A DNA stretch of 62,245 nucleotides, filler included, from Malassezia furfur (lineage: Eukaryota), in NCBI GenBank assembly GCA_052055015.1. It is 3 parts of 3 records of this genome, joined end to end, with 100 filler letters (N's around TTAATTAATTAA, not from the genome) between each part and the next. Parts side by side here need not be neighbours in the genome. Positions count along the whole stretch, not along the records: positions 20,977 to 41,699 come from JBQJIT010000175.1; 2 more parts are not named here. One strand, written 5' to 3'. A program made the position numbers and the translations under genes. The notes beneath the pieces are model-generated. The model was not told where the DNA came from and made no database searches. It saw only the letters and a program-made list of their open reading frames with translations. Below are positions 20,877-33,189 of the stretch, piece by piece. The stretch's first letter is position 1. Every line of letters begins with the position of its first letter.

Positions 20877-20976
20877 NNNNNNNNNNNNNNNNNNNNNNNN
20901 NNNNNNNNNNNNNNNNNNNNTTAATTAATTAANNNNNNNNNNNNNNNNNNNNNNNNNNNNNNNNNNNNNNNNNNNN
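20877..20976. other. Artificial contig-joining spacer (N44 + TTAATTAATTAA + N44)
   Basis: Exactly 100 nt with a six-frame stop linker at 20921-20932. Confidence 0.97.
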
Positions 20977-21387
20977 GCGCCCCCGCCGCTCGTGCCGTCC
21001 GGCGACGCAGGCGGCCCGTCGATCCCGACGCAGCCGCTGCCGCTCGTGATGCCCATCTCTGCGGTGCCGCGCTTGACGGCGCTCGGCATCAACCTCGTGC
21101 CTGCATCGCACCTGATCCCCGCGCTGTCGCTCGCGAGCGCAGGGCAGTCGATGGCGCTGAACCCCGGGCTGACGGCGCCACGCCCCGTCGTCGGCGTGCA
21201 GGAGGAGCCCGTGCTGCTTGTGGGCATCACCGACGCGCCGGGCGCGCCGGGCCACGTGTCGCACCAGCGGCTGCACCTCAGCGTCGTGCTCGCCAAGCTG
21301 CGGCCCGAGCAGCTGAGCGGCCTGGCGGCACTGATGCAGGCGCTGCAAACCGACGAAGGCAGCGGCGAGACGCGAGCAGCGACGTAG
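20977..21387 (+). CDS. 3' end of an unknown protein (5' truncated by contig start)
   Basis: Open frame …PLPLVMPISAVPRLTALGINLVP…LHLSVVLAKLRPEQLSGLAALMQAL…* with coding-like codon usage. Confidence 0.6.
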   Translation, partial: APPPLVPSGDAGGPSIPTQPLPLVMPISAVPRLTALGINLVPASHLIPALSLASAGQSMALNPGLTAPRPVVGVQEEPVLLVGITDAPGAPGHVSHQRLHLSVVLAKLRPEQLSGLAALMQALQTDEGSGETRAAT

Positions 21388-26021: not shown

Positions 26022-26938
26022 ATGGATGGGGCCCCGGGCTACGGCGTTACGACGTTCGCGCAGCATGCGGGCGCGTCGCTGCCCCCTGCCCCTGGTCCAT
26101 ATGAGGGTACGTGGCGCGTGCTCATCCAGAATTCTCGATCCCGATGGATGCGCCGCTGACGATGGACGAATCGGCGGTCGCCGACTTGTCGAGGATGCTG
26201 CGCATGCACGCGAGTGGGAGCCCGCTGCGCTCGCACGGCTCGCCAATCCGCAACGTCTATGAAGAGATGAATCTACGAAATGTGCCGCGCACGCCCGAGG
26301 CTAGCACGCCCCTATTTACCGAGAACGAGACATCGCTCCTGTCGCAGTTCCTGTCGAACATTGAGCAGGGGCTCGCGCAGCCGCCGCCGCCCAACGGGGA
26401 TGTGCCGCACGCATCGACATCCGGGGCGCCACCTACGCACTCGCCAACGCCACCCACGAAGGAAGAGGCGCGCTCCGCGTCGCCTGCCGAGGGCGAAGGG
26501 CCGGCACCCAAGCGGCGGCGGCACATTGTCTCGGAGCAGCGGCGGCGCAACCAGATCCGGCACGGCTTCACGCAGCTCTCCGAGCTGCTCGACAGTGGGC
26601 GGCAATTAGGAGCGCGTGCGCTGGGCCTCAACGCCGGCGCAGGCACAGGCGTTGAGGACGAGGATTTGGACGACCGCACCGACAACGAAGAGGACCTCTC
26701 GCTGATCCTCGACGAGGAAGAGGCGCAGCGGCGGCGGCGGAATGCGCAGCGGCGTGCACGTTCGCGTGCGGTAGCCGGAAAGCAGGTGCGCGGGCGCGGA
26801 CGCGGGCGCGGCGGGAGCGCCGGCGGGTCGGGGAGCAAGAGTGCGGTGCTGTTCCAGGTGATTGACCTGCTGCATTGGCTCGATGCGCGGAATGCGGCGC
26901 TGCGTGCCGAGCTGGACGAGATGCGCCGTATTGTGTAG
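26022..26938 (+). CDS. bHLH transcription factor, Ino4/Mlx-like, with a long loop insertion; 1 intron
   Basis: RRRHIVSEQRRRNQIRHGFTQLSELL…SKSAVLFQVIDLLHWL followed by a short zipper-like tail. Confidence 0.8.
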
Positions 26939-26972
26939 ATCCGTGTTCTGTATATACCCCTAGTTGTACACG

Positions 26973-29900
26973 CTATGAGCGTTCGGTGAGCGGCTCGTAT
27001 TGCCCGCGGTCGGAGCTGCGCCGCGCGACAGCGTCCCAGAGCTGGGTGACGAGGCGCGGCATGGCCGGGGTGTCGAGGCTGTGTTCGCGCTCGACCGACG
27101 CAAGGAAGCGGGGGTGTGTACTGATTGAGTTGCGCACGCGGTGCACCTCGGGGTCAGAGGTGGCCGGGGAGGTAAACTCGTCGTCGTCCTCGCCACCGAG
27201 GTGCTGGGGCACGGGCGCCACTGCGTCGCCAAAGATGGCGTCCATCTCCTCCAGCGGCACGCCCTGGGTCTCGGGGTAGCAGTAGTACACCACGACAAAC
27301 GAGCAGAGGCAGAAGAAGGCATGCAGGATGTACAGGCGCCACTCGATCGTCTCCTGGAGCACCGGGGTGAGCTGCCCGACGATCCAGTTGAAGACCCAGT
27401 TGGTGGCCGCGCTGAGCGACGCGCCCTTGGCGCGGAACGCGAGCGGCATGATCTCCGGGGTCCATGCCCAGGGGATCGGCCCCCATGAGTAGCCGAACGC
27501 CGCGTTGAACAGCACGACGCACACGACGACCGCCTGGGGCGTGTACGGCTTCGCCGCGCGCAAAAACATGCCGCACAAGCCGAGCATCAGCGCACACAGC
27601 AGCGCGCCCGAGAGCAGGATCGGGCGGCGTCCCCAGGAGTCCACGAGGAACCACGTCGGGACGGTGGACAGGACGTAGACGATGGCGTTGAGGCCGGTCA
27701 TCAGCAGCGCGTTGCGGCCGATCCACCCCGCGCTCTCAAACACGAGCGGGGCATAGTACGAGATGACGTTGATGCCGTTCAGCTGCGCAAACATCTGCGA
27801 GGACATGCCGATCAGCGTGCGCTTGCGCAGGCGGCGCCACATGGCGCCGTACGAGCGGTCGCCCTCCTCGCGCATCTGGAGCACGCTCTGGCGGATCTCC
27901 CAGTACTCGAGCTTGGCGCGCACGTTGCGCGGGTCGCCCGAGTTGTGCAGGTCGGTGAGCACGAGCATCGCCTCCTCGCTGCGGTCCTGGTCGAGCAGCC
28001 ACCGCGGGCTCTCGGGCAGGAGCACCGAGCCGAAGGCCAGCGTCAGGCCGATCACGGGTTGGACGAGCAGGGGCGCGCGCCACGCCGCGTTGCCGCGCAG
28101 GAAGCTGCACAGGTAGTCGAACCACACGCTGCCCATGTAGCCCACAATGTTGCCCGTGAACTCGATGCAGGCGAGCTTGCCGCGGTTCTCGGCGGGGGAA
28201 ACCTCGGACTGGTACGTGGGCACAATCATGCTCAAGAAGCCCACGCCAAAGCCCGAGATGACGCGCCCGACCACCATCGACATGTACCCGCGCGCGAAGG
28301 TCTGGATCGTGCCGCCCAGCGAGAAGACCAGCGCGCCCCACACAAGCACCTGCTTGCGCCCGTAGCGGTCCGCGAGCACGCCGCTGAGCAGCGAGGTGAT
28401 CAGCGCACCAATCTCGAGGATCGCGACCATGGTGCCGATCTGCGACGCGGTGGGGTGCGCAAAGTAGGTGAGGAACGCGGGTTGCGTCAGAATGCCGCTC
28501 ATCACGCCCTGGTCGTAGCCAAACAGAAACACGCCGAGACTCGCAAAGCACGTCACAAACAGCATCAGCGCACTCCCGCGGATGCCCGCGCGCGACAGCG
28601 GGTTGGTGCTCGCATCCAGCTCCACGGGCGGCGGGCGGATGCCCTGGATCGACGTGCGCGACACGCCGTACGGCAGCGACAGCGAGCGGCGCACCGGCTC
28701 GACGGGCGGCGGCGACATGGCGGGCGCTTCCTGCGCACTCGTCGGGACTTGGAGCGGCATGGCCGCCGGCGTGCTGCCGCTCATGTGCGACGTCGACGTC
28801 GAGGCGCGCGGCGCGTCGCTCCACGCCTCGAGCGGGTCGACGCGCATCTTGAGGTCGGGTGTCTCGAGCGTCGAGCGCGTTTCAATGTGCACGTCGTCGT
28901 CCTTGTCGACCTCCGCGGGGCGCGGCGTCGCATGCCCGTCCGACTGCCAGCGCCGCGGCGCGCCGCTCGTAAACAGCGCCAGGGCCGACTGCGTGTCGTC
29001 CGCGTCCAAGTCCCGCGCGCGCGCGCGCTCGGCGATCTCGGCCTTCTCGGCGCGCAGGCGGTCGGCCTCGCGGATGCCCCACGAGTGCCGGAAGATGTAG
29101 TGCACCTCTTCGAGCGACAGCTGGCGCGTGTCGGGGAAGCCAAAGATACACAGCACCGCGCCGAGCGCACAGAGCCCGGCATAGAAACCAAATGCGCCCG
29201 ACGGCGTGATGGCGTTGCTCAGCGACAGGTAGGTTGCGTTGATCAGCAAATTGCACCCCCAGTTGGTCGCCGTCGCGATGCTCGTGGCAATCGCGCGCGT
29301 CTCGATCGAGAACAGCTCGCCCTGCTGCCACGGCACGTTGCCGAGGCCCAGCGCATAGAAGAGCACGTAGATGATGAAGGACACGATCAGCAAATCGGCC
29401 CATACGTGGTTGATCGGCATGTCGGGCGTGATCTTGGACGGGGTGCCAGGCACCACGTAGTAGAAGCAGATGCTCGAAAACACCAGCGCGGCGCTCATCA
29501 CCGGCACCGTGTAGATGATCGCGCGCCGCCGCCCGACAATGTCGATGAACCAAAACGCGATGAGCGTGCCGAGGAAGTTGGTCACACTCACCACCATCGA
29601 CACGGCCACCGGGCTCTTCAGACCGACGCTCTCAAAAATCGTCGCACTGTAGTACATCAGCGTGTTGAAGCCGGACAGCTGCTGCAGTGCCTGCAGCCCC
29701 GCGGCGATCGCCAGCGCACGCGCGTTCGGGCCGGTGAGCAGCAGGCGCACGCGCGTGCGCAGCGAGTGCTGATGCACGCCGTTGGCGTCCGCGGGGCCCT
29801 CTTGCACGCTGCGACACACCTCCTCGGCGCGCATGCGGCAGTACTCTTCGCTCGCGTCGGGGAAGATGCGCTGGAAGGTGCGCGTGACCTTGTCGACGCG

Positions 29901-30666
29901 CCCTTTGCGCCCGTCGAACCGCGGCGATTCGGGCAGCCACGACATGCTGATCAGCGACACAATCGCGGGGATCGCACCGCCAGCCACCGTGTATCGCCAG
30001 CCACCGTGGACATCGACAAAGCCAGCGCCGACACCGTTCGCAATCACCTGACCGAGCGTCAGGAAGGCCACGTTGAGCGTCACCAGGCGCCCACGCAGGT
30101 GCGTTGGCGCCAGCTCGCCGATCCACACAGGCACAATCATGCTCGCGACGCCCACGCCGATACCCACAATGAAGCGCCCGGCGATGAGCGTCCCGATGTT
30201 GTGCGCGGCCGCCTGGACGACCGCGCCCACAATAAACACAATGTTGGCGATCGCAATCACAACTTTGCGCCCAAACCAGTCTGAGGGAAACCCGGCAAAC
30301 AGCGCGCCAATGAGCGCGCCGAGCGACGTCGAGGAGGTCGCCATCTCCTTTTGCCAGTCAGTCAGGGGATGGCCCAGGTCGGAGCCGACGCTGACCAGCA
30401 CGGACGAACTGCGTCAGTGAAGCACACACGCACATGTAGCCCGTGTCGTAACCAAACAGCGAGCCAGACAGGCCCGCACACACGGTGAGCATCCACAGCG
30501 TCCACCCGGCGCGCTCCATGCCGCTCCGCATGAGCGCCACAGACTTGGGCGACACACCCAGCTCCGTCGTGATGAACGTTGGACTCGGCGGCTTGTCGCG
30601 CACCGCGTCCTCAGGCACATGGGACGTGAGCGTGTCCATCGCGATCGGCGGCTCACGGAAGACCAT
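26973..30666 (-). CDS. Tandem double MFS sugar porter: N-terminal myo-inositol transporter (Itr1-like) plus a C-terminal second sugar-porter domain; intron 30409-30433
   Basis: Domain 1: LFGYDTG, DWFGRK, ELAPTHLRG, PESPR, QQLSGFNTLMYY, GLGNVPWQQGELF. Domain 2: LFGYDQG, DRYGRK, EVSPAENRG, PESPRWL, QLNGINVISYY, WGPIPW, PETQG. No stop codon between the two. Confidence 0.85.
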
Positions 30667-30780: not shown

Positions 30781-33189
30781 CTACACACGCCAGCCGTCCA
30801 GGCCGCTATAGGACACGCCGGGCGTCGACGTCAGCTCGCCCATCGCCACGGCATCCTCACCGGCGTCGCGCAGCTGTGCAAGCACCGCGTCCGCCTTCGC
30901 CGCAGGCACCACCAGCACCATGCCGATGCCGTTGTTGAACGTGCGCGCCATCTCCTCCGGCGCAACGCCGCCCGCATGCTGCACCCATGGGAACAGCGGC
31001 GGGCGCTCCCACGCACCAAGGTCGATGTGCGCACCGAGGTGCTTGGGCAGCATGCGCGGCACGTTCTCGGTAAAGCCACCGCCGGTGATGTGCGCAAGGC
31101 CCAGCACGTCGTGGTCCGTAGCACGCAGCATAAACGACAGCGGCTTCACATAGATGCGCGTCGGCGCAAGCAGCGCATCGCCGAGCGTCGCAGGCGTCTC
31201 AACGCCGGCCACCACCGAGCCAGGCGCGCCCCACGGCGGCGGCGCATCGAGCGACGCCTGCGCCCGCGCGACGCACTTGCGCAGCAGCGAGTAGCCGTTC
31301 GAGTGCGCGCCGCTGCTGCGCAGACCGAGCAGCTTGTCGCCTGCCTGCATCGCGTCGGTGCGCGGCAGGATCGCCGACCGCTCCACAGCACCGACCGCGA
31401 AGCCCGCGACGTCGTACTCGTCGCCGACGTACATGCCGGGCATCTCGGCGGTCTCGCCGCCAATCAGCGCACTCTCCGCCTGGCGGCAGCCCTCGGCAAC
31501 GCCCGAGATTACCTGCGCGGCGGTGTCGACGTCCAGCTTCGAACACGCAATGTAGTCGAGGAAGTAGAGCGGCTGCGCGCCTTGCACAACCAGGTCGTTG
31601 ACCGACATCGCCACAAGGTCGATGCCGATCGTGTCGTGCTTGCCGTAGTCGAGCGCGACGCGCAGCTTGGTGCCGACACCGTCCGTGCCGCTCACCAGCA
31701 CCGGATCGCGGTACTGAAGCGCGGCCAGGTCAAACACGCCGCCAAAGCCGCCGAGATGGCCCATGCACCCGGTGCGCTGCGTGCTCTTGGCCATCGGCTT
31801 GATGCGCTCCACCAGCGCATTGCCGGCGTCGATGTCGACGCCCGCCGCGGCGTACGTCAGGCCAGCGTCACGCTGCTGCTTCGCGGCAGCCAGCGCACGG
31901 TGCGCAATGTCGCGGCGGTACACCATCCCGTCAAAGTGCACACACCGCACGCCGTCGTACGCATGCTCCAGCGCCTCCTCGAGCGTCGCACCCGTCGCGC
32001 TCACCACGACGACACGCCCGCCCGCGGTGACAAGCTGGTCATTCTCGAGGCGCGTCCCGGCATGATACACGGTGACACCCTTGGGCAAAGCGTCGACCGT
32101 CATCGGCACGCCCGTCGCATACTTGCCGGGGTAGCCGCCGCTTGCGATCACGACGCTGACGGCGTAGCCGGGCAGGATGGAGAATTCGGCACAGTCCAAG
32201 CGGCGCTCCACGCACGCCATGAGGATGTCGGCGAGCGCGCCCGCCGGCTGGAGCAGTTCCAGCACCGCCTCGGTCTCGGGGTCACCAAAACGCACATTGT
32301 ACTCGAGCACCTTGGGGCCCTTGGAAGTGAGCATCAGGCCGACAAACAGCATGCCCACGAACGGATAGCCGTCCTTGCGCATGCCGGCGATCGTCGGAAG
32401 CAGCACCTCGTTGCGGATGCGCTCCTCCATGCCAGGCGCCGTGCCATCGGGCGTCGGGCAGTAGGCACCCATCCCGCCCGTGTTGAGGCCCGTATCGCCC
32501 TCGCCGATGCGTTTGTGGTCCTGGCATCCAGGCAGCGCACGCACGGTGTACCCGTCCGAGAACGCCAGCACGGACAGCTCGGAGCCGTCGAGACGCTCCT
32601 CAATGACGAGTGCATCGCCCGCATCGCCAAACACCTTCTTCACCAAAAGGTCCTCGACGCCCTCCTTGGCCTCCTCCTCGGTTTCGGGCAGAAGAACACC
32701 TTTGCCGCCCGCCAGGCCGCTCGCCTTGAGCACGACACTCTTGGCGCCGCCAAGCTCAGCAATGTAGCGCATGCATTCATCCACCTGCGATGCGGTGAAC
32801 GACCGGAACGCGGCCGTGGGGATGTTATGCCGATCCATAAACTCCTTGGCAAACTTCTTCGAGCCCTCCATCTGCGCCGCGACAGGCGATGGGCCGAACA
32901 CGGGGATGCCCACCTTGCGGAAAGCAAGCTCCACACCCTCAACCAGCGGCGCCTCGGGGCCGGGCACCACCAGGTTCACATTGTGCTCGACTGCCCACTG
33001 CGCAATCGCACCAAAGTCGCCGGACGCTTTCGGCGACGTGACGTTCGAGCAGCGGTCGCCCATCACGGCAGTGCCGCCGTTGCCGGGCGCAACATACACA
33101 TGCTCCACGCGATCGGAACGCAGCAGGTGTAGTGCCAGCGCATGCTCGCGGCCACCGGCGCCGAGAATGAGAGCACGGAGGGACGACAT
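30781..33189 (-). CDS. ADE5,7: Bifunctional GAR synthetase / AIR synthetase
   Basis: [78 protein letters not shown]. Confidence 0.97.

Follow-up and report, generated by a model that had tools for sequence, protein, structure and literature searches.

Fusions of whole major facilitator superfamily (MFS) porters are already known in bacteria, where the NarK protein of Paracoccus (NarK1-NarK2) unites two distinct complete MFS porters in a single chain of 24 transmembrane (TM) segments (PMC5217062, cited here, like the other papers below, from excerpts of its text). Sugar porters usually take the form of a single 12-TM polypeptide, as is the case for T. reesei Stp1, A. niger An07g10370 and Ustilago UMAG_11171; of these, Stp1 is described as accepting glucose and cellobiose in one line of a review (PMC11466781) and in a FASTA header of the PMC5968117 supplement. 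That usual form was not found at the locus described here, in which two domains share one frame. It lies in a window (the whole stretch of DNA analysed, three parts joined by filler) of 62,245 nucleotides (nt) of Malassezia furfur, assembly GCA_052055015.1, where a double-transporter gene on the minus strand, 30666-26973, predicts after intron removal a product of 1222 amino acids (aa): a first half of the Itr (myo-inositol) type, a linker of ~140 aa and a second half assigned to the Stp1 family.

Two sugar-porter domains in one conserved frame

Two stretches of the product match Pfam Sugar_tr (PF00083; E 3.8e-203) and two match TIGR00879 (682 bits, against a cut-off of 237.8), bearing out the first-pass annotation of this DNA, which had described a single frame of about 1220 codons with a 25-nt intron near the 5' end and two sets of sugar-porter signatures. 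Half 1 (29000..30501, ~aa 56-548) is predicted to comprise 12 TM segments and a cytosolic tail helix, and half 2 (27231..28574, ~aa 690-1137) another 12, all on the minus strand. The halves are only 24% identical to each other, compared with 49-50% (half 1) and 63-71% (half 2) to their single-domain relatives; therefore they do not derive from an internal duplication, which is ruled out in favour of the fusion of non-identical genes that had been proposed.

The TM1 Asp, TM4 Arg, TM7 Gln/Asn, TM10 Trp and TM11 Asn, together with the cytosolic salt-bridge residues, are kept in both halves of the 25 aligned fused sequences, and likewise in single-domain relatives. The invariant positions are Asp74, Arg156, Gln320, Gln321, Asn326, Trp438 and Asn460 in half 1, and Asp710, Arg793, Gln953, Asn958, Trp1058 and Asn1081 in half 2. 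The A-motif and the PESPR and PET motifs are present too (25/25 fused), PET reading PDT in half 1, and the first TM7 Gln is Ala both in half 2 and in 66/66 single relatives. We take these residues to serve in proton coupling and gating, as in work on XylE, GLUT and STP10. For the TM4 Arg, its role is also stated in PMC11466781. Judged by such residues, neither half gives the impression of a degenerate scaffold.

The AlphaFold model of the exon-2 product displays two helical bundles and a disordered linker, with 11 and 12 membrane-type helices according to our own reading of the helix list, TM1 of half 1 being encoded in exon 1 and hence lying outside the modelled product. Its mean predicted local distance difference test score (pLDDT) is 58, falling below 50 in the linker (aa 467-591 of the model), and its predicted template modelling score is 0.43. 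A plain hydropathy scan gave 18 peaks over threshold, a look-up in the ESM Atlas returned generic names only, and the prediction of a complex between half 1 and half 2 scored 0.00 in two runs, made with neither alignments nor control folds, and carries no weight either way.

The frame starts at the ATG at 30666. Exon 1 (30434..30666, minus strand) encodes the beginning of the Itr half, with its cytosolic N-terminus, TM1 and Asp74 (GYDTG), in agreement with the annotated M. furfur protein P0117, and is followed by the 25-nt GT..AG intron (30409..30433, minus strand). This intron is present in both alleles and missing from five metagenome orthologues (L022-L026), whose single open reading frame (ORF) carries both TM1 motifs. 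Exon 2 (26973..30408, minus strand) is a single open frame with its stop codon at 26975-26973, the minus-strand open frame at 30413..26973 counting 1146 codons. With regard to the annotated M. furfur protein KAI3626013.1, only 1 of 1222 residues is different. A second copy with 92% DNA identity occurs in the same assembly (13.7 Mb), its linker also being open; a second copy fits the hybrid M. furfur strains already described (PMC4634964).

The linker (28575..28997, minus strand, ~aa 549-689), which connects the Itr tail helix to TM1 of half 2, is coding and predicted to be disordered. No stop occurs in frame, against 2 and 1 in the other two frames, its GC content at third codon positions is 0.94, and no donor matching GT[AG][ACT]GT, GTGCGT or GTACGT was found within it, as the first-pass annotation had maintained. 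An open stretch of this length has by base composition alone a p of ~0.05 here and of 0.001 in a 50%-GC relative; since the linker is conserved across relatives, alleles and metagenome loci, a chance open frame is discounted. Comparison with the second allele gives a ratio of nonsynonymous to synonymous substitution rates (dN/dS) of 0.19 over 183 codons (0.04 for the Itr domain) and of 0.18 when only the 74 codons preceding Met620 are counted, with a single indel of 3 nt, indicating purifying selection. Each of the five fused metagenome loci likewise consists of one ORF, with linkers of 132-169 aa, and the one with 50% GC has 6 and 8 stops in the other two linker frames.

Three short motifs, all on the minus strand, recur in the linker. 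D-P-L-[DE]-x-W (28821..28838) lies upstream of a conserved Met and is found as D-x-L-[DE] in 23/23 Malassezia linkers and as a looser D-rich/W pattern in three smuts. M620-x-G-x-[ST]-P-A-h-P-x-x-h-P (28743..28784), common to Thecaphora frezii, Pseudozyma flocculosa and Violaceomyces palustris, keeps its Met in 15 of 26 fused sequences and is possibly a relic of an internal start or a live one. R-R-S-x-S-x-P (28671..28691) appears as R-[RK]-[SA]-x-[ST] in 23/23 Malassezia linkers and 0/3 smuts, and is presumably a candidate basophilic kinase/14-3-3 site.

Families of the two halves

Half 1 groups with fungal porters annotated as Itr (the names being those of the databases) and shares their motifs, in line with the inositol-transporter type expected for it; the Itr motifs that had been quoted are present at aa 320 and 434. 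Relative to single Itr1/Itr2-type myo-inositol:H+ symporters of Agaricomycetes it shows 49-50% identity over ~490 aa, has QQLxGFNTLMYY and GNVPWQQ motifs and retains all key residues; searched alone, it retrieved Agaricomycete-type matches of 53-60% identity, and the M. sympodialis record is labelled as similar to ITR2. It differs from those porters in having no stop past the tail helix, in its PDT for PET, in forming a clade of its own on a long stem and in being found, in this fungal group, only fused. Searches with each half considered at most 8000 candidates, and no named smut or Malassezia protein appeared as a stand-alone first half among the best 120 of 983 matches. It is the only Itr-type porter in the genome, the next best protein being 31-32% identical to the Itr probe, and by its family it would transport myo-inositol with H+. 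A genome search for MIOX, run without a positive control, found none.

Half 2 shows the orthology expected of a member of the conserved, single-copy Stp1/UMAG_11171 family of Dikarya, to which we assign it. With its family motifs, T. reesei Stp1 was the sole match among 61 characterised fungal porters (PMC5968117 supplement), and with the TM5 motif An07g10370 was the sole A. niger match. Identity is 67% to UMAG_11171 and 59% to the Stp1-like protein P0525, of which half 2 is the best match in the genome; P0525 served as stand-in for T. reesei Stp1, itself compared by eye over its first 400 residues. No second Stp1-type porter gene is present in the genome. Compared with the single proteins of this family, half 2 of Malassezia has WAWTPE for WLYPPE. 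Two relatives (P0234, P0505) bear the automatic name 'putative STL1', and Stl1 was not among the proteins that the family motifs picked out of the 61 characterised porters. Family membership suggests glucose as the probable substrate, and perhaps cellobiose.

Beyond half 2, a C-terminal cytosolic tail of ~85 aa (26976..27230, minus strand) contains an R-x-S-I-S-[TS]-H-P-R motif also seen in stand-alone smut orthologues. Glucose sensors of the Snf3/Rgt2 type have long C-terminal tails, of which no counterpart was found here, although the linker could serve as a tail of half 1. Separately, three TM7 positions that hardly vary in other relatives, Asn955, Ser961 and Ala964, are changed in 6/6 stand-alone second halves of Ustilaginaceae (P0192-P0194, P0495, P0504, P0517) and not in Testicularia, which possibly reflects a shift of substrate after loss of the Itr half.

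Distribution and origin of the fusion

Among 113 matches in the protein search, 22 cover 96-100% of the query and the remaining 91 cover at most 50%. Relatives had been proposed as a check, and the fused form is indeed annotated in 14 named Malassezia taxa (furfur, brasiliensis, yamatoensis, psittaci, obtusa, japonica, vespertilionis, pachydermatis, sp. CBS 17886, cuniculi, caprae, equina, nana and sympodialis), being kept in every named Malassezia species found, as well as in T. frezii, P. flocculosa and V. palustris; a fusion restricted to Malassezia is thereby rejected. Databases name these models after one half only, or as hypothetical. The M. sympodialis model SHO76040.1 (1169 aa) probably belongs to the curated annotation in which every gene has RNA-seq evidence (PMC5389616), a link between accession and paper that we infer. 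Among the best 120 of 1123 matches, second halves alone (600-730 aa) occur in Testicularia, Ustilago (UMAG_11171), Sporisorium, Moesziomyces, Kalmanozyma, Tilletia, Exobasidium, Ceraceosorus and numerous further fungi. When metagenomes were scanned, both halves were present at 5 of 80 loci, the other 75 having only a relative of the C-terminal half and none of the neighbour genes; no recognisable contig of Ustilaginales or Exobasidiomycetes was found among the 80.

In a tree of the first half (13 fused and 27 single rows; the outgroup is not clean and several branches are long), the fused sequences form one clade with a Shimodaira-Hasegawa-like approximate likelihood-ratio test support of 100, separate from a different Itr paralogue of Testicularia. 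A linker profile built from Malassezia alone scores each of the three smut linkers above 200/200 shuffles, at 8-14 bits, and the shared motif picked out in all three is M-x-G-S-S-P. On the side of the second half, a 24-row tree joins the stand-alone sequences of Ustilaginales to the fused smut ones (100/99), and an approximately unbiased (AU) test rejects the monophyly of fused-only second halves (p-AU 0.00023), the group tested having been chosen after a quick 47-row tree. Ustilago and its kin have the second half only, and a T. frezzii preprint gives the order Violaceomyces, then Urocystidales (Thecaphora, P. flocculosa), then Ustilaginales (10.64898/2026.02.02.703329). Taken together, the trees suggest as the simplest reading a single fusion before the split of Malasseziomycetes and Ustilaginomycetes, after which Ustilaginales lost the Itr half. 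Going beyond the first-pass annotation, the fusion would thus be far older than Malassezia and broken afterwards in Ustilaginales, with a second half of the Stp1/UMAG_11171 family. No stand-alone Itr orthologue was found in Exobasidiomycetes, and the tree does not resolve the three-way split. Two placements of Malassezia are published (PMC4634964); both need equal numbers of events, barring a stand-alone exobasidiomycete Itr orthologue, so the fusion does not settle between them.

The gene is closely packed between its neighbours. Upstream, ADE5,7 (GARS-AIRS; 30781..33180, minus strand, start coordinate approximate) ends 114 bp ahead of the transporter ATG; downstream, a convergent basic helix-loop-helix (bHLH) gene (26105..26938, plus strand) has its stop codon 34 bp away from that of the transporter, an interval (26939-26972) in which the 3' untranslated regions probably overlap. 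ADE5,7 upstream and the bHLH and haspin genes downstream flank the fused gene in 5/5 fused metagenome loci as well. A run of N at ~20877-20980, between parts C174 and C175, is far from the gene.

Several database models around this family are composite. An older M. vespertilionis model, P0130 (1942 aa), joins ADE5,7 to the double transporter, and a later annotation splits them (P0006, P0131). Two metagenome proteins are chimeric, P0004 beginning with the N-terminus of another cluster and P0571 with a seemingly unrelated bacterial protein; P0430 was used instead of P0004 in trees and tables. P0029, P0538, P0562 and P0627, one of them from a nematode, are long proteins with 4-6 Sugar_tr stretches and may be merged models of tandem arrays.

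Proposed function and comparison with known systems

We favour, with moderate confidence, two working and independent H+/sugar symporters that are joined by a disordered tether in the cytosol and share their expression and turnover. One gene would yield one 1222-aa, 24-TM membrane protein with two self-contained symporters, the Itr-type myo-inositol porter preceding the Stp1-type one, and each half would cycle on its own. Because each 12-TM unit begins and ends in the cytosol, the linker would be cytosolic and act as a flexible tether of ~140 aa. Fusion would then place both under a single promoter, hold them at 1:1 stoichiometry, send them to the same membrane and have them removed together, with the linker motifs D-P-L-D-x-W, M-x-G-x-T-P and R-R-S-x-S-x-P as putative shared control sites. 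A single event, in which an Itr gene read through into an adjacent Stp1-type gene, would have given rise to the arrangement. Considering that (i) the substrates of both halves are proposed from family membership, and half 2 has, family-wide, Ala952 and Phe828 where GLUT/XylE-type porters have Gln, so that glucose is not assured, (ii) an INO1-type inositol-phosphate synthase is encoded twice in the genome, and inositol uptake is therefore not obviously essential, (iii) smut gene models may hold predicted introns and the linker-motif scores are low, (iv) linker peptides had 0 matches in the 14,595 characters of text that accompany the M. sympodialis proteogenomics study as its supplement (without the peptide list and not covering picture tables or PRIDE), and (v) the halves of a fusion kept for so long might just as well depend on each other, as those of NarK are reported to do, some evidence weighs against this view.

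Interdependence is the essence of a coupled pair, in which the halves would pack together and one would control the other, for example with the Stp1-type half sensing or moving glucose and gating inositol uptake. We hold this to be rather unlikely. Retention of the fusion in all the Malassezia species found and in the three smut-group fungi is consistent with it, as are the change of PET to PDT in half 1 (25/25 fused, 0/51 single), that of WLYPPE to WAWTPE in half 2 (22/22 Malassezia), the three TM7 residues changed after loss of the partner (6/6 Ustilaginaceae) and the interdependence of the NarK1 and NarK2 domains (PMC5217062). On the contrary, transport residues are intact in both halves, the distance between PDTR and TM1 ranges from 146 to 250 aa, in Ustilaginales, Exobasidiomycetes and other fungi the second half works without a partner, as a gene of its own, and the C-terminal tail is short next to those of Snf3/Rgt2. 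The coupled uptake or sensor half once suggested for this gene is thus not supported so far, no test showing coupling. A wider proposal, which we put forward as tentative and on balance improbable, is a cis-regulating pair (glucose status gating inositol uptake, or one ligand removing both porters) that would pre-date the split of skin yeast and smut and be tunable by an internal start, its fusion and breakage serving as a rare genomic marker for the disputed position of Malasseziomycetes.

Such an internal start could also give a dual output, the full-length fusion plus the second porter alone from internal transcription at Met620, which we see as a minor but genuine possibility, compatible with independent tethered symporters. 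In 12 of the 15 sequences that keep this Met, it lies 68-75 aa ahead of TM1, which is where stand-alone Ustilaginales proteins have their start Met (71-78 aa), and its use would ease the later loss of the Itr half. Nonetheless, Met620 is replaced or deleted in 11/26, residues upstream of it are conserved as well, base -3 is C in 3/3 DNAs against a purine at 8/10 true starts in the same loci, the synonymous rate (dS) upstream is not lowered (0.279 vs 0.278), and stand-alone N-termini score at most 4.9 bits with the linker motif. As a replacement of the fusion, the internal start offered by the first-pass annotation fails, the Itr half running without a stop in every fused sequence; as the source of an added short product it has some probability, and of the three Met codons named only Met620 (28784) is conserved to this extent (15 of 26), Met642 being absent from the second allele and Met628 being Leu in M. 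brasiliensis. Cleavage of a polyprotein within the linker, giving two porters after translation as a whole, appears very improbable: the linker is disordered and exposed, with short conserved motifs, but by the inferred topology it would face the cytosol, away from secretory-pathway proteases, and no conserved cleavage motif was recognised in it. That two separate genes were joined by an assembly error, a missed stop or a missed intron is hardly credible and largely refuted. Merged models do occur in compact Malassezia genomes, such as P0130 and those described in PMC5389616, but the second allele, 22 clusters and 5/5 independent contigs are in frame, the linker codons are under selection and splice signals are absent; an assembly slip or missed stop is excluded by the allele, the metagenome loci and the linker selection.

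Since one and the same porter exists both in fused form (Malassezia, the Thecaphora group, Violaceomyces) and unfused (Ustilago, Tilletia, other fungi), the two forms constitute a natural test, and the effect of tethering MFS transporters becomes directly testable. In the examined genome of the lipid-dependent Malassezia, moreover, the sole Itr-type porter and its sole Stp1-type counterpart sit in one gene, and the pattern of fusion bears on smut evolution. No description of the fusion was found in the literature, also by six locus tags/accessions, although subscription journals or supplements could hold one, and the excerpts of PMC7451774, PMC2817709, PMC8154325, PMC6899921, PMC10774165, PMC10500205 and 10.1101/2025.06.24.660996 do not mention the gene. 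Fused fungal models were already in public databases; new, as far as searched, is a fungal fusion, or one joining two different sugar-porter subfamilies.

Double sugar porters of ~900 aa in metagenomes (P0061, P0062, P0064, P0606, P0618, P0629, P0638) resemble the present protein in having two Sugar_tr domains per chain (7/7), and differ in identity and linker length: in the 4 tested, one half compared with the other gives 34-39% identity, and comparison with either half of the present protein gives 24-32%; only a few dozen residues make up the linker. They are of independent origin, probably by tandem duplication, and probably bacterial. In several of them the second domain is without the TM1 Asp.

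NarK1-NarK2 remains the closest system in layout. Both fusions place two different full porters in one chain, with 24 TM segments in NarK and as many predicted here, each domain also existing as a single gene, and both have a linker variable in length and sequence. NarK, on the contrary, is made of bacterial nitrate/nitrite porters of one pathway whose interdependence has been shown; no nitrate/nitrite porter domains were found here, the best families for both halves being sugar porters. The Malassezia fusion, known from its sequence, is eukaryotic and joins sugar porters with apparently unrelated substrates through a much longer linker with shared motifs. It is thus like NarK1-NarK2 in layout but not a member of that system.

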